Assembly (NCBI GenBank): GCA_041744215.1
Contig: JBGTLG010000036.1
Span: 1-64,000 of the forward strand
Origin: Fimbriimonadales bacterium
GTDB taxonomy: Bacteria > Armatimonadota > Fimbriimonadia > Fimbriimonadales > ATM1
DNA length: 64,000 nt
Direction of reading: 5' to 3'
Below the pieces are notes generated by a model. It was given only the letters and a program-made list of their open reading frames with translations. It was not told the DNA's origin and did not search any database. Of the stretch, positions 2,833 through 44,771 are shown one piece after another. Position 1 is the first letter of the stretch, and each line of letters begins with the position of its first letter. The position numbers and the translations under genes are program-made.

Positions 2833-3050
2833 GCACTTTTCGTTCTGCTCGTTCTTGAAGTGGCTCTAGGCCAGTTCTGCCTTCTGACACTGACAAGGGA
2901 CGCCCGACAACACCCATCTGAATCTGGGTGAAGGGGTCAGGGAAGGGCCGTTTTCCCCAGATCCGCCCCGGATCGCGATGCGCAAGGAGTGTCGTACGTC
3001 TGTAAACGGACCATAATATAGCCGGACACCGTCCGGTGTCGGAGAACCCA

Positions 3051-3992
3051 ATGAAGCACCTACAGATTCTTCTCTTCTCTCTCGGAGTCCTCGCCGTCGG
3101 CCTCGGCTGTGCAAAGGACACGACTACCATAGTGGAAACGCCGAGCACCCCGGCCGATCCGGGATCCCTTTCGGCCCAGGCGCCGGGCGGTAGCCCTGGT
3201 TCGGAAACGCCTGCAGCTCCAACCGAGGCGACTCAGCCGGAGGCGCCTGGCGCGCCGGCTCCGAGCAAGCCCGTCACTGAATCGCCTGCGGCAACCGCAA
3301 GGCCTGCGACGCCGAGCGGCTCGACACCGGCACCACCAGCCGGATCGTATCTCCTTCGGGTGAAGCCCAAAAAGGGCGAGTCGTTCCGCTATCAGATGTC
3401 GATGAAAGCAGAAGGCGCATCTGGGCCCGCTGCTATGGGCGAGATGGACGCGACCGTCAGAATGTCAGTGTCTGATGTGTCTGCCGGGGAAACCACCATC
3501 AGAATGACCTTCGAGAAGCTTGACGTTCCCATGTTCGCCCAGCTTCCTCCTGAGCAACGGCAGCAGGTCGAAACGATGTTCAAGAGCCTTGCTATCATCT
3601 ACACATTGGATGAACGCGGCAACTCGAAGTCCATCAAATCTGAAGGCGGTATGCCAGGGATGGAGCGGGCGTTCGATGGCATGGGCGGTGCAACCGCCGC
3701 GTTTCCCGAAAAGCCTGTAAAAGTCGGCGATTCTTATACAACCGAGCAGACCATGAACGGGAACACTGTGAAGAGCACTTACAAGATTGTTGGTGTCGAA
3801 ACGAAGCATGGTGTTCGGTCTCTCAAAATGAATGTGAGCGTCGATTCGGGCAAAGACGCTCAAACGCTCGTCATGTGGGTTGACCCGTCGAATGGGATGA
3901 TGGTCGCCCTCCAAGGTACGTCTCCTGTGCCCGCAGGGCCCGGCGGCCAGGGCGGCGGCGGCACTATGAAGATGACGATGAGAAAGCTCTAA
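3051..3992 (+). CDS. Lipoprotein with Pro/Ala/Thr-rich linker and beta-rich C-terminal domain
   Basis: MKHLQILLFSLGVLAVGLGC lipobox; GGAG SD. Confidence 0.85.
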   Translation: MKHLQILLFSLGVLAVGLGCAKDTTTIVETPSTPADPGSLSAQAPGGSPGSETPAAPTEATQPEAPGAPAPSKPVTESPAATARPATPSGSTPAPPAGSYLLRVKPKKGESFRYQMSMKAEGASGPAAMGEMDATVRMSVSDVSAGETTIRMTFEKLDVPMFAQLPPEQRQQVETMFKSLAIIYTLDERGNSKSIKSEGGMPGMERAFDGMGGATAAFPEKPVKVGDSYTTEQTMNGNTVKSTYKIVGVETKHGVRSLKMNVSVDSGKDAQTLVMWVDPSNGMMVALQGTSPVPAGPGGQGGGGTMKMTMRKL

Positions 3993-38908: not shown

Positions 38909-40347
38909 CGCTCAAGCTCCTGTAGCAATACTCGGCTGACTATCTCGGGATTTGCTTTACCTTGTGACCTTTTCATGATTTGTCCGACCAGGAAGCCCTG
39001 AATACTCGTTTTGCCTTCCTTATACTTTTGGACGGCTTCGGGGTTCTGATTCATCGCATCAATTACGAATTCCCTGATTTCAGTCTCGTCGGTGATCTGG
39101 GCGAGTCCATCCTGACTGACGATCCTCGAAGGCAAATCGCCGGAAGAGAACGCCTTAGAAAAGACCTCTTTTGCCTGCTTGCCGTTGATCCGGTTCCCTT
39201 TCAGCACACTCACAAGGTCAACGAGGTGAGCTGGAGTGACCTTCGACGCCCGCGCGGAGAGACCCTCTTCGTTCAGCATGGCCAGGAAGTCGGAGTTCAT
39301 CCAGTTGCACACCAACTTGGGATCTCCTCCAGCCTCGACCGCCTCGTCGTAGTACTCCGCCCACCCGCGATCCTCGGTGATCAGCAGCCCTGCGTCGTAG
39401 GCACCCAGGCCATGCTCCTCCATGTACCTCTTCCTGCGAGCCATCGGCAACTCGGGCAGCCCAGCCCGGATCCCCTCGACGTGTTCCTCGTCAAACTCCA
39501 TTGGCGGCAAATCCGGGTCTGGGAAGTAGCGGTAGTCATGCTCCCGCTCCTTCATTCGCATTGGAAAGCTTTTCTGACCCGCCTCGTCCCAGCCGCGTGT
39601 CTCCTGATGGAGGATGCCTCCCGATTCCAAGGTTGTGATCATTCGCTCAGTCTCGTACTCGATCCCGAGACTAACTGCCTTGAATGAGCCAAGGTTTTTT
39701 AGCTCCGCTTTCGTTCCCAATTCGCTCGCGCCTTCCTTCGCTACTGATATGTTCGGCTCGCAACGAAAACTGCCCTGCTCCATTCTCCCGTCCGAAACCT
39801 CGAGGTGAATGAGCGTTAGCCGCAGATAGTGGAGGTACTCCCTTGCGTCTTCCGAGGAGTGAATGTCTGGAGGAAATGCCGTTACGATCTCCATCAGCGG
39901 GACGCCCGCCCGATTGAAGTCAACGCCGGCTTTGCCGCCTGGGAGGTGCATAAGCTTGCCAGTGTCTTCTTCAAGGTGGATTCTCTGAATTTGAACCTGC
40001 CTGACGCTATCCCCAGAGGGAATCTCGATCCAGCCGTGATAGCCGATCGGATTCGTTTCTCCGTACTGACTGACCTGATACCCTTTCGGCAGATCTGGAT
40101 AGAAGTAGTTTTTGCGATGAAAGACGCTTCGCATCGCGATTGAGCAGTTGAGCGCGAGCGCTGTCCGTAGCACATGCTCGACCGCCTGCCGATTGATGAC
40201 CGGCAGACTCCCGGGGAGTCCCAGACACACCGGGCAGACGCGAGTATTGACCTCCCCCCCGAAAGTGCTCGGACAGCGGCAAAACATCTTGCTCTTGGTG
40301 AGGAGTTCGGCGTGAACCTCCATGCCCACGCTCGTTACATATCCCAT
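38905..40347 (-). CDS. gatB: Asp-tRNA(Asn)/Glu-tRNA(Gln) amidotransferase subunit B
   Basis: [51 protein letters not shown]. Confidence 0.98.
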
Positions 40348-40467
40348 CTAGGCAATTTTGACACCTTGCGCGCGATTTACTGCCCACACCGGCATGAAAG
40401 TCGTGATAAGATGGACTGTGTGTGCTCATAGCTTAGGCTAAAGCCCACGGCATAAGGAGAACTCAAC

Positions 40468-41145
40468 ATGTCAGTTAAGAAAATTGCGATACCCTTGTTT
40501 CTCGTCGTTGCGCCGGTGCTAGGTGCCGCCCAATGGGTCGAAGGTAGCAGAAGCCTGTTGACAGGCGCGAACTCGCTCTTCGGGCCGACTGGTTTGATCG
40601 TGATCCCTACCGCCTACACCGTCGAGAAGAACATGTTCGCGGTGAGCGGCTCCTTCGGCAAAAACATGCGAGGGCCTGCCGCCAACTTCGGCATCCTCGA
40701 TTTTATTGAGATCGGCGGCGCGTTCATTGATCGTGAAGGCGCATCCAACAAAGCGATCGCGAACGGCAAGGTCACGATTCTGCCTCAGAACTTCAAAAAC
40801 TTTGAAATCGGCATCGGCGTTATCGATGCGCTCGACGCGATCGGTCGTACTCTTTACGTCGTCGGAAGTGCCGACTTCATCCCGCCGAACATAGACGAGC
40901 CAATCGCAGGGACGCCGCCTGTCGGGTTCAAAGTCCATGCAGGAGTTGGATCGGGAATGTTTAACGAGGAGCTGTTTGCGGGCGCAGAGGTCCTCTTCGG
41001 GAACAAGTTCAGCCTGATTGGCGAGTGGGACACGAGCAACTTCAACGGCGCGGTTCGATACAGTCCAAATGAGCAGGTGCGAATTCAGTTTGGATTCATG
41101 AAGACCGATCTGTTCTTCGGTATCACCGGCAAGTTCCGGATGTAG
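40468..41145 (+). CDS. Outer-membrane beta-barrel protein, YjbH-like N-terminal motif
   Basis: Signal peptide; G.TGLI.IPTA motif; amphipathic strands; AAGGAG SD. Confidence 0.75.
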   Translation: MSVKKIAIPLFLVVAPVLGAAQWVEGSRSLLTGANSLFGPTGLIVIPTAYTVEKNMFAVSGSFGKNMRGPAANFGILDFIEIGGAFIDREGASNKAIANGKVTILPQNFKNFEIGIGVIDALDAIGRTLYVVGSADFIPPNIDEPIAGTPPVGFKVHAGVGSGMFNEELFAGAEVLFGNKFSLIGEWDTSNFNGAVRYSPNEQVRIQFGFMKTDLFFGITGKFRM

Positions 41146-41151
41146 GCGATT

Positions 41152-41179
41152 GCCTGGCCGCCCGTCTGGGCGGCCAGGT
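41152..41179 (+). terminator. GC-rich hairpin after the barrel gene (no U tract)
   Basis: CCTGGCCGCCC-GTCT-GGGCGGCCAGG. Confidence 0.6.
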
Positions 41180-41212
41180 GAACTTCATTGGCCCCATGGC
41201 GTAGAACGGAAT

Positions 41213-41797
41213 GTGAAAGGTTTAGTTGCCGCTTTGGTGTTGATTGCGGGTCTGAGCTTGGCGCTGGCCCAACGCGTGGCTGGAGGCCCGAAACCTGGGG
41301 AGGACGCGATTGACTTTTCTTTGAAGATCGTCGGCGAGGACAAGAGATTTAAGCTCAGGGATAACTACGGGAAGCGGCCGACGATTCTCATTTTTGGCAG
41401 CTACACCTGACCGCCGTTTCGCTCGCAGGTCGGCGAGCTCGAAAAGCTGTATCAGGAGTACAAGCAGAATGCGGACTTCTGGATCGTTTACATTCGCGAA
41501 GCGCATCCCTCAGACGGCTGGCAAGTCGCGCAAAACGAGCGACAGGGCGTCGTGATAACCGATCCCAAGACCGAAGCCGAACGGGAGGCGATTGCGGGCC
41601 GCTGCGTCCGCGAGTTAGGATTGACGATTCCTGCGGTCATCGACGGTATGGAAAACAAGATCGGGAACGCCTATGCCGCATGGCCGGATAGGATTTACAT
41701 CGTTGGTGTCGACGGAAAGATAGCGTATCAGGGCGAGCCGGGACCGAGGGGGTTTAAGCCCTCGGAGGCGAAAGCGGCGTTGCTGAAGATTCTTTGA
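41213..41797 (+). CDS. Exported iodothyronine-deiodinase-like selenoprotein (TGA 41408-41410 read as Sec), 194 aa
   Basis: Single frame across the TGA: RPTILIFGSYT-U-PPF, VYIREAHPSDGW, D.M.N....YAAWPDRIY, GPRGF; signal peptide. Confidence 0.92.
41411..41443 (+). promoter_or_regulatory. Bacterial SECIS-like element
   Basis: GCTCGC-AGGTCG-GCGAGC hairpin starting 11 nt after the TGA; GCAGGUC apex as in the E. coli fdhF SECIS. Confidence 0.85.
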
Positions 41798-41812
41798 AGT
41801 ATTCTGCAGCGC

Positions 41813-43453
41813 ATGTCCACAGAGCGGCTTCATGCACTGTTTTCGTCCGACTGGGAATGGCGCATGAAGGAGTATCCCGAGCGCGCCTCCTTTTACGGCG
41901 ATAAACGGTATGCCGATCGCATTACGGATCAAAGCATCGAAGCGATCGAGCGACGGTACGACGATTTGGCTGCACGGCTTGCCGAAGTCGAAGCGATTGC
42001 CGACGAACAACTGTCAGAAGGAGATCGCCTCAATCGCGCGATCTTCGAACGCATGCTCCGCGACGAAGTGGAAGGTCGAGAGTTCCGCGACTATCTCCTA
42101 CCGATTCAAGCGCGATCCGGCCCTCAATTCTATGGCGACATCGCGCGAAACATCTCTTTCAACTCGGACGAGGACTACGAAGCGTGGCTTTCGCGAATGG
42201 CGCAGTTCCCGAAAATGATCGATCGAGTAATCGAGGTTCTTCGTGAAGGGGTCGCCAGCGGGATCGTACATCCGAAGGTTGTTATGCAACGCGTTCCTGC
42301 GCAACTCGAGAAGCAACTAACGGGCAACCCAGCGGATTCTTCCTTCTATGCATCGTTCGCATCAAATCGAAAGTTCGCGGATCGCGGAATGGAATCCATT
42401 CGATCTCATATCATCCCTGCCTTTGGAAAGCTGAGAGACTTCTTCGTTGCTGAGTATCTGCCAAACTGCTTAGGCGATGTGGGCGTTTGGCAGCTACCGC
42501 AAGGCGCGGAGCGTTACGCTTACGCCATTCGCGAACAAACGACGACCAGCCTCTCAGCGAAAGAGATACATGACATCGGTTTGCAGCAAGTGCAACTTCT
42601 CCGTGAGAGGATGGAACGCTGTAAAGAGCGCGCCGGGTTCAACGGAACCCTGGACGAGTTCTTTCGCTTCCTTCGCACCGATCCTCGCTTCTTCTTTTCA
42701 ACTGGCGGAGAGTTGCTTTCAGCCTATCGCGCGATGGCGAAAGAGATTGACTTGCAGCTCGTCAAAGTCTTCTCGAAACTCCCTCGCACACCTTATGGCG
42801 TCACGCCGATTCCAATGGATTCTGCCCCCGACACGACGACCGCGTATTACATGCCACCCGCTGCAGACGGATCGCGCGCAGGCCAGCACTTCGTAAATCT
42901 CTACAAGCCGGAAACGCGACCGAAGTGGGAAATGATGACGCTCTCGCTTCACGAAGCGGTGCCTGGCCATCACCTTCAGATCGCTTACGCGATGGAACTT
43001 GGTGAGATGTCCGAGTTTCGCAAGCACGGACACTTCACGGGATACATAGAAGGGTGGGCGATGCACGCTGAAACTCTTGGATACGATATGGGGTTCTTCG
43101 AAGATCCCTATTACGAGTTCGGACACCTAACCTACATGATGTGGCGCGCCGTCCGTTTAGTTGTGGACACGGGAATTCACGCATTCCGCTGGAAACGCGA
43201 ACAAGCTATCGAATACTTCATGCAGAATGCGGCGAAACAAGAGCACGACGTAATCAATGAAATTGATCGCTACATCGTCTGGCCAGGGCAAGCGCTCGCA
43301 TACATGATCGGTTACCTGAAGGTGAACGAATTGAAAGAACGTGCGCTGTCATCGGGGCAGACGCTTAAGCAGTTCCACGAAGCAATACTCGACTTGGGGC
43401 CGCTGCCTCTAGATGTTTTGGACACGGAGTTAGCGAAGTTTGCTAAGCAATAA
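41813..43453 (+). CDS. DUF885 family protein (putative metallopeptidase)
   Basis: HEAVPGHHLQ, EGWA..AE, RAVRLVVDTGIH, PGQALAY. Confidence 0.93.
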   Translation: MSTERLHALFSSDWEWRMKEYPERASFYGDKRYADRITDQSIEAIERRYDDLAARLAEVEAIADEQLSEGDRLNRAIFERMLRDEVEGREFRDYLLPIQARSGPQFYGDIARNISFNSDEDYEAWLSRMAQFPKMIDRVIEVLREGVASGIVHPKVVMQRVPAQLEKQLTGNPADSSFYASFASNRKFADRGMESIRSHIIPAFGKLRDFFVAEYLPNCLGDVGVWQLPQGAERYAYAIREQTTTSLSAKEIHDIGLQQVQLLRERMERCKERAGFNGTLDEFFRFLRTDPRFFFSTGGELLSAYRAMAKEIDLQLVKVFSKLPRTPYGVTPIPMDSAPDTTTAYYMPPAADGSRAGQHFVNLYKPETRPKWEMMTLSLHEAVPGHHLQIAYAMELGEMSEFRKHGHFTGYIEGWAMHAETLGYDMGFFEDPYYEFGHLTYMMWRAVRLVVDTGIHAFRWKREQAIEYFMQNAAKQEHDVINEIDRYIVWPGQALAYMIGYLKVNELKERALSSGQTLKQFHEAILDLGPLPLDVLDTELAKFAKQ

Positions 43454-44771
43454 CCCGAGTTAGCGGCTCCGGCGCCATCCTGCGATACTCCGGCCCATCA
43501 ACGATCGAATGACCGTGACGAATGAAGTATTCGAACTCTTCGGGAAACACCTTCAGCGCTCCCGCAACTGGCCACGCAGCAGCGTCCCCCAAACCGCAGA
43601 AAGAACGCCCGTCGATCTGTGAGCAGACCTCCTTCAACAACTCGATGTCCTCCATGCGCCCGCCGCCTTTTCGAATTCGATCGAGGACCTGCTCCATCCA
43701 CGTTGTTCCTTCGCGACACGGTGTGCATTTCCCACATGATTCGCGCGCATAAAAGAGAGACGTCCGCCAGATAAACGTAACAATGCACGTGTGCTCGTTG
43801 AGAAACATGCATCCACCAGATCCCACCATGCTCCCCGCATCGAACATCTCTTCGTACCCGATGACTGCGCTCATCGTCTGCTCTGCGTTCAGAATTGGAA
43901 CGGATGATCCTCCCGGGACGCAAGCCTTGAGCGCGCCACCCTTCATCCCTCCCGCTAACTCCAAGAGTTCAGCCAACGTCGTTCCAAACTCGACTTCATA
44001 GTTGGCGGGCTTGTTGACATGACCAGAGACGCTGAAGATCTTCGTTCCTCGAGAATTCTTCGTGGACGCGCCAAGCGTCGCATACCACTCCCCGCCGTTC
44101 ACGAGGATGTGCGGAGCGCACGCATAAGTTTCTACGTTGTTGATCACCGTTGGGCAATCCCACAACCCCGCGACGGTCGGTAACGGCGCGTGAGGAAACT
44201 TCAATCGGGGCATTCCGCGCTCGCCCATCAAACTGCTCATGAGCGCACTCTCTTCGCCGCATTCATAGGAGCCAGCGCCGAGATGAACATACATATCGAA
44301 ATCCCATCCGGTGCCCTGAATGTTCTTCCCCAAAAACCCCGCAGCGTAGGCTTCGTCGATCGCCTGCTTGACTGCCCTCGCACAATCGACAAACTCCCCG
44401 CGAATGTATACATACCCAACGTCGCCCTGGGTGGCCCATCCTGCAATCATCATCCCCTCGATCATCAAGTGGGGAGTGTTCTCCATCAACTCCTTGTCCT
44501 TAAACGTGCCGGGCTCACCCTCGTCTGCGTTACAAAGTATGTAATGTGGCTTGGTCTTTTCCTTCTCGATTCCGTTCCACTTGATCCACGTAGGAAAGCC
44601 CGCGCCGCCGCGCCCGCGAAGGCCACTCGCTTTGATCTCGTCGATGACGGCCTGTCGGTCCATACCCAGAGCCTTTTTGAGGCCAGCGTAGCCACCTTTG
44701 GACATATAGCCTTGAATCGTTCGGTAGCTGGGGTCGCCGGAGTGTTTCAGGAGGAGTCGGGTTTCGGTCAT
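43443..44771 (-). CDS. nuoF: NADH:quinone oxidoreductase subunit F
   Basis: GLRGRGGAGFP, NADEGEPGTFKD, CGEE.AL, ESCGKCTPCREG. Confidence 0.96.
   Translation of the reverse strand: MTETRLLLKHSGDPSYRTIQGYMSKGGYAGLKKALGMDRQAVIDEIKASGLRGRGGAGFPTWIKWNGIEKEKTKPHYILCNADEGEPGTFKDKELMENTPHLMIEGMMIAGWATQGDVGYVYIRGEFVDCARAVKQAIDEAYAAGFLGKNIQGTGWDFDMYVHLGAGSYECGEESALMSSLMGERGMPRLKFPHAPLPTVAGLWDCPTVINNVETYACAPHILVNGGEWYATLGASTKNSRGTKIFSVSGHVNKPANYEVEFGTTLAELLELAGGMKGGALKACVPGGSSVPILNAEQTMSAVIGYEEMFDAGSMVGSGGCMFLNEHTCIVTFIWRTSLFYARESCGKCTPCREGTTWMEQVLDRIRKGGGRMEDIELLKEVCSQIDGRSFCGLGDAAAWPVAGALKVFPEEFEYFIRHGHSIVDGPEYRRMAPEPLTRVIA

Follow-up and report, generated by a model that had tools for sequence, protein, structure and literature searches.

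The stretch of DNA analysed here, referred to as the window, comprises the first 64,000 nucleotides of contig JBGTLG010000036.1 (assembly GCA_041744215.1) of a Fimbriimonadales bacterium, and this work concerns a gene at positions 41213-41797 of its forward strand, which encodes a selenocysteine-containing protein related to the thyroid-hormone deiodinases of animals. Under translation table 11, the region appears as two open reading frames (ORFs), 41150-41410 and 41552-41797, which lie on the same (+) strand and in the same frame and are joined into one when a single TGA is read as selenocysteine (Sec, U). The joined frame has 194 codons, starts with GTG at 41213, terminates with the TGA at 41795-41797 and contains one internal stop only, the TGA at 41408-41410, in the context FGSYT-U-PPF (with the residues that follow, FGSYT-U-PPFRSQVGELEKLYQ). 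An earlier reading made from the letters without database searches (the sequence-only reading) had proposed a hidden exported deiodinase-like selenoprotein at this place. Both ORFs and the single TGA between them are as it described, and the in-frame translation downstream of the TGA runs, as it stated, through VYIREAHPSDGW and YAAWPDRIY. The features of the gene are as follows.

41213..41797, + strand: coding sequence of the deiodinase-like selenoprotein, 194 codons in a single frame; PF00837 domain at residues 27-192; six-frame match with one TGA.
41213..41269, + strand: predicted secretory (Sec-type) signal peptide or N-terminal membrane anchor, residues 1-19 (MKGLVAALVLIAGLSLALA), judged from the sequence; possible cleavage after A-L-A, before QR.
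41408..41410, + strand: UGA, very likely selenocysteine 66 (Sec66), in FGSYT-U-PPFR; column with only TGA or Cys codons among 94 genes; Sec machinery present in the genome.
41417..41444, + strand: selenocysteine insertion sequence (SECIS) hairpin within the coding sequence; 6-bp core stem, apical loop AGGUCG, predicted outer pairs UUUC/GAAA.
41498..41521, + strand: motif E96-A-H98-P-S-D101-G-W103, start of the deiodinase-specific insertion (loop-D, to about residue 120), from alignment to mouse Dio3 and Dio2.
41603..41605, + strand: TGC codon of Cys131, the sole other Cys of the protein and a candidate resolving residue.

The protein matches the Pfam family T4_deiodinase (PF00837) with 123.1 bits against a cut-off of 27 (E 1.4e-35), residues 27-192 corresponding to positions 74-235 of the 237-position profile. 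One domain is thus found on both sides of the TGA, which makes the joined frame more than a chance arrangement. A six-frame search of the whole genome with this profile gave one match only, the window gene, at 115.7 bits and with '1 TGA' inside. Weaker matches to AhpC-TSA (PF00578, 33.3 bits, cut-off 26) and Redoxin (32 bits, cut-off 26.6) overlap the domain; the protein is related to AhpC-TSA within the clan, and PF00837, about 90 bits stronger, is the best family. The best NCBIfam match is the hypothetical-equivalog model NF038285, 'deiodinase family protein' (E 8e-60, 203.1 bits), which falls below the cut-off of 250 bits and covers positions 159-341 of 347. The window protein lacks the approximately 158 N-terminal positions of that model and is aligned only with its C-terminal 183, so it is a shorter relative of the NF038285 proteins and not one of them.

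Deiodinase-like proteins of bacteria, containing either Sec or Cys, were reported by Zhang, Fomenko and Gladyshev in 2005 (PMC1088965), including four Sec sequences from the Sargasso Sea. The window gene is a genuine selenoprotein gene of this already described family, to which it adds one more member. The statement in the sequence-only reading that such bacterial selenoproteins have been reported is right; the novelty it attached to the gene was overstated. At least one homologue is already named 'deiodinase-like protein' at NCBI.

A different explanation has to be weighed at the level of decoding, namely that there is no selenoprotein at all and the TGA is either a real stop (in a pseudogene, between two small genes, or through an assembly error) or a codon read as tryptophan or another standard residue. 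It draws on the two short ORFs seen under table 11, on the W present at this column in some database homologues and on the hairpin of the window, which taken alone is not significant. We regard this explanation as very improbable in view of the genome and of the homologues, which are described in turn.

The source genome (2.68 Mb in 42 contigs, 93% complete) carries selA (413 bits) and selB (356 bits), both free of internal stops, as well as selD (339 bits), all above their curated cut-offs, and one tRNA-Sec with the anticodon tca, which scores 78 bits against Rfam RF01852 and is likewise above the cut-off. The lack of Sec machinery, named by the sequence-only reading as a ground for abandoning it, is thus not what the genome displays. 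The selD gene has an in-frame TGA of its own in ...DCAG-U-ASK..., so selenophosphate synthetase is itself a selenoprotein here and the genome has at least two selenoproteins. Among the 653 ORFs of the genome with at least 400 residues after an M, 218 end with TGA, 218 with TAA and 217 with TAG; TGA, which closes one third of these long frames, is an ordinary stop in this organism and no general sense codon.

Sixty related genomes were compared together with the source genome. PF00837 exceeds its cut-off in 14 of them, and in 13 of the 14 the match contains exactly one in-frame TGA, within GSYT*PPF in 12 genomes and GSYR*PPF in one (the asterisk marks the TGA). In the fourteenth, G012, the match is merely partial and free of stops (profile positions 129-235), and it lies downstream of the Sec column. 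A selA match occurs in 14/14 genomes with the deiodinase-like gene, and the gene is over the cut-off in 0/28 genomes without a selA match, in tallies whose genomes are related rather than independent and both of which take in an unpublished genome (G011).

A wider scan covered one representative genome for each of 185,579 species and matched at least 603 stretches, with at least 602 confirmed relatives. The best 80 loci, together with the 13 relatives described above, were read as DNA, giving 94 genes in all; the records of the best 80 are titled Armatimonadetes, Planctomycetota, Acidobacteriota, Verrucomicrobia, Chloroflexi/Dehalococcoidia, Actinomycetes and others. At the Sec column, these 94 genes have TGA in 88 cases, TGC in five and TGT in one, which is the Cys-or-Sec column anticipated from the sequence, and Sec forms make up 75 of the best 80 loci. 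Since two loci (L037 and L024) are the same contig, there are 87 unique TGA sequences, on which the counts below are based unless otherwise indicated. The TGA thus stands at the exact column in genes of several phyla whose frames are open both before and after it, and the remaining six genes have Cys codons and not Trp. In metagenomes, 26 loci were found in all; 10 of the first 12 inspected match the motif pattern and 10/10 have the TGA, while L123 and L126 do not match the pattern.

Protein databases give another picture of the same column. The 120 listed homologues have C in 84 cases and W in 15, and the remaining 21 are fragments of 117-146 residues starting just past the Sec column. These 3' pieces are what the sequence-only reading foresaw when it stated that standard pipelines would call fragments. 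Concerning W, a metagenome scan with P0002, the best of the W-bearing hits, returned loci 92-93% identical to it that have TGA at this column, and one of them, L117, ends under table 4 with ...CTTWP*, as P0002 does with ...CTTWP, that W being the gene's own TGA stop. Because near-identical loci have TGA and the terminal W is a read-through stop, the W of P0002 is a translation-table artefact, and the other 14 W-bearing proteins probably carry the same one. Trp in homologues, which had been put forward as a possible refutation, therefore comes down to TGA under another code, directly so for P0002.

As to an error in the reads or the assembly, parts of the 64-kb stretch are contained in three hot springs metagenome runs of one study. 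A 35-kb contig from run X1 shows 0 differences over 41000-42000 at a depth of 19 and so carries the same TGA, although X1 is possibly the source sample and hence not independent; runs X2 and X3 have no contig across 41408-41475. Read support is weak, and it is the conservation across genomes that answers the suspicion of an assembly error. No RNA run is among those containing the stretch. Taken together, UGA 41408-41410 is very likely decoded as selenocysteine by the organism's own SelA, SelB, SelD and tRNA-Sec. Standard gene callers split or mistranslate such a gene, and the region should be annotated as a single selenoprotein.

Some observations on Sec genes were made along the way. The selD gene of the source genome lies at G000:C16:75837-76805 on the minus strand (locus L010), with its TGA in ...LVDCAG-U-ASKLG.... 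At L054, in a metagenome-assembled genome with the record title Verrucomicrobia bacterium, the deiodinase-like Sec gene is situated directly downstream of selB on the same strand (selB 990-2786, Sec gene 3001-3465). A Planctomyces metagenome-assembled genome (L071) has two paralogues approximately 1.3 kb apart (at about 1860 and 3222, both +), one with TGA in FGSFT*GPYR and the other with Cys in FGCFSCGNYR.

The hairpin downstream of the UGA consists of GCTCGC (41421-41426), the loop AGGTCG (41427-41432) and GCGAGC (41433-41438). Its stem begins at the 11th base after the A of the TGA and its loop 16 nt after the UGA; letters and spacing agree with those given by the sequence-only reading. In the window it is unremarkable by itself, so its significance comes only through comparison with relatives, where the conserved TGA is followed by a co-varying hairpin and the earlier SECIS reading is upheld. 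Under a strict criterion (loop start exactly 19 nt after the U of UGA, loop of 3-7 nt, contiguous stem), a stem of at least 4 bp is found in 73/88 Sec genes, 9.6% of 35,695 control positions in the same genes and 0/6 Cys genes, and one of at least 6 bp in 34/88 Sec genes and 1.6% of the same control positions. When the loop start is allowed to shift by ±2 nt, stems of at least 4 bp are present in 79/87 unique Sec sequences.

The pair adjoining the loop is C-G in 47 sequences, G-C in 36, U-G in three and G-U in one, while the second, third and fourth stem pairs are formed in 85, 76 and 75 of the 87; the loops are rich in G and start with AGG in 60, AGU in 10, CGG in nine and AUG in six. These swaps in the stem alter the encoded peptide, which is R-S-Q-V-G-E in the window protein, R-R-E-V-P-A in many Acidobacteriota and R-T-Q-V-S-E in G009. 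In an ungapped alignment of the 87 sequences, with one fixed register of a 5-nt loop that was picked after viewing the sequences, pairing is seen in 71.8% of cells, compared with 46.3% in shuffles, and the covariation score is 0.538 against 0.175, with 0/500 shuffles reaching either value, statistics that are inflated by the relatedness of the compared sequences. When the partner is slid by 1-3 columns, the score falls to 0.065-0.343. An Rfam search of 41350-41550 with E up to 10 returned no family, and Rfam holds no model fitting such a short element. On these comparisons it appears strongly supported that a short hairpin, located in the coding sequence no more than 30 nt past the UGA, directs the decoding of this codon, and equally that compensatory changes have maintained the hairpin in different phyla.

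A minority of Sec forms (L028 from G034, L043, L055, L068, L075 and L082) lack the standard register of the hairpin. Alternative stem-loops are seen in such off-register forms, for example CGGCA aca TGCCG, CCGGCA gcatg TGCCGG and TCGCGATGTCG...GACATCGA, and the SECIS element has been remodelled in some lineages.

The relation to animal deiodinases extends to the fold. A sequence search of the PDB matched mouse Dio3 (4tr3, E 1.5e-25, residues 23-188) and mouse Dio2 (9h48, E 3.4e-20). An AlphaFold2 model built from 31 sequences has a mean predicted local distance difference test score (pLDDT) of 90.6 and a predicted template modelling score (pTM) of 0.84, and Foldseek gave at least 500 matches for it, headed again by 9h48 (template modelling (TM) score 0.75, 34% identity) and 4tr3 (TM score 0.69, 33% identity). 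These are followed by oxidoreductases of the ResA/TlpA type and DsbE, and then by 1-Cys peroxiredoxins and AhpE. The family assigned from the letters is thereby corroborated by the profile (123 bits), by the sequence matches to Dio3 and Dio2 and by the model, which strongly supports a deiodinase catalytic-core fold including the family-specific insertion.

Residues around the active site are almost invariant among the 87 unique Sec forms. Near Sec, these are S63 (87), T65 (86), Sec66 (87), P68 (87) and R70 (87); at the edge of the insertion and downstream, Y93, E96, A97, H98 and D101 (87 each), W103 (79) and N108 (86); and further on, P140 and D144 (85 each), P158 and R160 (87 each). For the animal enzymes, the consulted parts of PMC11592359 propose a proton relay comprising Dio2 Ser127, Thr129, Tyr157, Glu160, His162 and His182, together with a peroxiredoxin-like recycling through a selenenylsulfide, and name Dio2 Cys205 as the distal Cys. 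Five of the six relay residues have counterparts in the window protein (S63, T65, Y93, E96 and H98), and R160 aligns with Dio3 Arg275. The motifs FGS-x-T-U-PPF and Y-I-x-E-A-H-P-S-D-G-W are nearly identical to those of mouse. With Dio1-3, the protein further shares 33-34% identity over the catalytic core, the loop-D insertion and a hydrophobic N-terminus. It differs from them in Tyr64, which stands where animal deiodinases have Cys before T-U, and in its SECIS, which lies inside the coding sequence, whereas that of animal deiodinases is an element of the 3' untranslated region.

This likeness gives room to a second explanation, in which the same selenoprotein is a reductive dehalogenase: its selenolate would take iodine, bromine or chlorine off an aromatic ring or an N-halo compound, and the network of Ser, Thr, Tyr, Glu and His would deliver a proton to the ring, as in animal deiodinases acting on iodothyronines. 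The protein is a true member of the deiodinase family (123 bits, as compared with 33 for AhpC-TSA and 32 for Redoxin), its top structural matches are Dio2 and Dio3, the loop-D insertion is kept, and the five relay residues as well as R160 are conserved in 86 or 87 of the 87 Sec forms. Nevertheless, the sixth relay residue is a proline in the window protein, and there are no halogen-related genes near the window gene or in the flanking ORFs scanned in other loci. A thyronine substrate, moreover, is not expected for a bacterial enzyme, unlike for the animal ones, since thyroid hormones are not expected in bacteria (PMC1088965). Among the papers listed by searches of the open full-text literature, outside of which subscription journals largely lie, none reports an assay of a bacterial member in its title or abstract opening, and both the 2005 paper and two reviews (PMC9312934 and PMC13188914), in the sections consulted, call the functions unclear. 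That bacterial deiodinase-like Sec enzymes are extracytoplasmic reductive dehalogenases of natural halogenated phenolics or N-halo compounds seems unlikely to us, though it is the main alternative. If it were true, the hormone deiodinases of animals would have inherited an ancient and very widespread bacterial activity of detoxification or scavenging, and Cys131 would be the family-specific resolving residue of those dehalogenases.

Cys131 lies on the helix 121-135; Cys occupies this column in 80/87 Sec forms and is found within residues 126-135 in 84/87, and in 66/87 it is the sole other Cys of the mature domain. Cys at position +3 from Sec is present in 0/87 Sec forms, and the window protein reads U-P-P-F there. 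This bears on a third explanation, according to which the protein would be an extracytoplasmic thiol:disulfide oxidoreductase of the TlpA/ResA type that reduces disulfides in partner proteins, for example during the maturation of cytochromes or copper proteins. ResA, TlpA-like proteins and DsbE are the nearest structures after the deiodinases, the predicted location is extracytoplasmic, a CcdA/DsbD homologue is encoded in the genome and there is a weak match to the NCBIfam ResA model. That match, however, reaches 27.6 bits, far under the cut-off of 170, no cytochrome-maturation genes are adjacent, and the defining CxxC or UxxC pair is absent; since all 87 Sec forms lack a Cys at +3, classical CxxC disulfide exchange is unlikely, and we consider this explanation improbable, more so than dehalogenation.

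The location rests on the N-terminus, which reads M/V-KGLVAALVLIAGLSLALA, followed by QR: a short positively charged start, a hydrophobic core of 16 residues and then A-L-A, the pattern that the sequence-only reading had recognised as a Sec-type signal. The AlphaFold2 model has a helix at residues 2-20, and a 13-residue N-terminal stretch with mean hydropathy of at least 2.0 is present in 69/93 unique family genes. Either a cleaved signal or an uncleaved anchor may fit this N-terminus; in both cases the catalytic domain would be placed outside the cytoplasm, which we consider likely. By eye, three N-terminal layouts occur in the family: a short signal peptide (the window protein and its close relatives), a membrane anchor with the conserved module YWAMRQPPxxFG after it (many Acidobacteriota), and a form with no hydrophobic segment (some Chloroflexi and deltaproteobacterial records).

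Other N-terminal additions were also noticed. The module, as YWAM(R/S)QPP(E/D)xFGxxM, is present at L046, L048, L051, L056, L057 and other Acidobacteriota loci and not in the window protein. In two proteins of about 300 residues, P0068 and P0100, N-terminal EF-hand domains are fused to the deiodinase-like domain (precomputed Pfam matches PF13405 and PF13499), and P0002 (compare loci L117-L122) has a stretch, DQNKDGFVNEKEI, that resembles an EF-hand loop.

The explanation we favour is that the gene encodes an exported Sec/Cys redox enzyme of the deiodinase-like family, and we give it as a whole a probability of roughly 0.6. Catalysis would probably follow a peroxiredoxin-like, extracytoplasmic cycle of two residues. 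The selenolate of Sec66 would attack an electrophilic atom of the substrate, giving Se-OH or Se-X; the conserved Cys131, as candidate resolving residue, would then convert this intermediate into a selenenylsulfide; and an external thiol reductant would restore the enzyme, for instance a thioredoxin-like protein supplied with electrons by the genome's membrane protein of the CcdA/DsbD type. A DsbD_TM/CcdA homologue is indeed encoded (123 bits) and makes a periplasmic electron supply possible. As for the substrate, a hydroperoxide is our best guess, a tentative one that we would place below even odds and ahead of a halogenated aromatic; what is left after peroxide reduction, dehalogenation and disulfide exchange falls to other electrophiles. 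In favour of peroxide are the descent of the fold from peroxiredoxins and what is usual among exported thiol peroxidases, whereas the family-specific insertion and the relay speak for deiodinase-like chemistry. The 'reductive dehalogenase or peroxidase' put forward by the sequence-only reading is likewise a guess.

The likeness to atypical 2-Cys peroxiredoxins consists of a thioredoxin-type fold with N-terminal strands, a nucleophilic residue where helix 1 begins and a second Cys far from it, and is accompanied by the weak Pfam matches and by the lower-ranked structural matches (AhpE, 1-Cys peroxiredoxins) given above. The signature of peroxiredoxins, PxxxTxxC, does not occur in this form in the window protein, which has Ser at -3, Thr at -1 and no Pro at -7. 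The protein further departs from them in having Sec for Cys and the deiodinase-specific insertion.

Several observations weigh against the favoured explanation, in addition to the relatedness that inflates the shuffle statistics. At the level of the hairpin, the 66-nt fold around it in the window has z = -0.62 against shuffles, and 6-7% of 13,824 synonymous recodings give a stem of at least 6 bp at the same place (P 0.06-0.07). At the active site, the counterpart of the relay histidine of Dio2, His182, is Pro118, in a column that has Pro in 66 Sec forms, Ala in 10, His in six and Thr in five. The distal Cys of the animal enzymes (Dio2 Cys205 and, in Dio3, what we take to be residue 239) aligns with Ile139 and not with Cys131, which is on the preceding helix. 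The strong retention of the deiodinase-specific insertion may indicate a chemistry nearer to dehalogenation than to peroxide reduction. Finally, no conserved neighbour points to a substrate or a reductant among the 87 of 172 flanking ORFs examined at 44 loci.

Compared with the bacterial family as described in the accessible text of PMC1088965, the window gene has in common the PF00837 domain, an in-frame UGA for Sec where some homologues have Cys, a presumed redox role and, immediately 3' of the UGA, a SECIS of the bacterial type whose small apical loop contains a G. That text describes bacterial SECIS elements in the deiodinase-like genes and suggests a redox function unrelated to thyroid hormones. 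The reviews PMC9312934 (2022) and PMC13188914 (2026), as far as the available parts go, still count the family among those of unknown function, and their Table 1 gives its Sec motif as 'UxxC'. The window gene and all 87 Sec forms have instead U-[P/G/H]-P-[F/Y], in which +3 is never Cys, and the table entry may refer either to another subgroup or be a generic label. The available parts of PMC1088965, PMC9312934 and PMC13188914 mention neither the signal peptide nor the conserved distal Cys131, nor that Sec forms predominate (75 among the best 80 loci).

The window gene alone adds no new principle. The incremental points are the breadth of the family and its Sec dominance, the conservation of Cys131, the way in which hairpin and peptide have evolved together, the predicted export signal and the presence or absence of the single gene within a genus. 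The bacterial family is large, counting at least 602 relatives among the representative genomes of 185,579 species, and the window protein, being small and single-domain with one Cys besides Sec, would be convenient for studying the ancestral chemistry of thyroid-hormone deiodinases.

Upstream of the selenoprotein gene lies a 225-residue ORF (40468-41145, +) with an N-terminal signal-like segment, for which neither Pfam nor NCBIfam gave a family; the C-terminal residues, ...FFGITGKFRM, are suggestive of an outer-membrane beta-barrel, as an impression only. Downstream, a DUF885 gene (41813-43453, 542 bits) starts 15 nt past the selenoprotein stop, and gatB and a nuoF-like gene flank the local group; none of these neighbours gives a functional hint. 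A sigma-70 scan of 40300-43600 found 0 promoter-like sites. In the neighbour scan, 87 of the 172 nearest flanking ORFs, from 44 of the 87 unique Sec loci, were given to Pfam. Neighbours differ among these 44 loci, so there is no conserved partner gene. The sole recurrent neighbour is a ClpX/HslU-like AAA gene in six close relatives, belonging to six other genera of the taxonomic family; it was rejected as a functional partner, as it reflects plain synteny.

Another genome of the same genus (G001, 94% complete) keeps the surroundings of the gene without the gene itself. Its homologues of the 225-residue ORF (about 72% DNA identity, synteny kept) and of the DUF885 gene are adjacent, with 143 nt between them (L146:3123-3265), as compared with 669 nt in the window (41144-41812), and the deiodinase-like gene was not found anywhere in that genome. 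Within this genus the gene has therefore been acquired or lost as one unit. In G001, a short sequence ahead of the DUF885 gene, TTCTGTAAAGTA, is similar to the 3' end of the window gene, TTCTTTGAAGTA; the likeness may be a deletion scar or a chance one.

Just past the stop of the 225-residue ORF and 34 nt before the GTG, the window has a perfect 11-bp inverted repeat (41153-41178), CCTGGCCGCCC gtct GGGCGGCCAGG. An alternative TTG start of the selenoprotein gene at 41150 is unlikely because the frame would run through this repeat. The repeat was not called by a terminator scan because it has no T-run; its possible roles are those of a terminator, an attenuator or an element of RNA stability. 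A hairpin stands at the same place in G001 with different stem letters, CCTGCCGACC attg GGTCGGCAGG.

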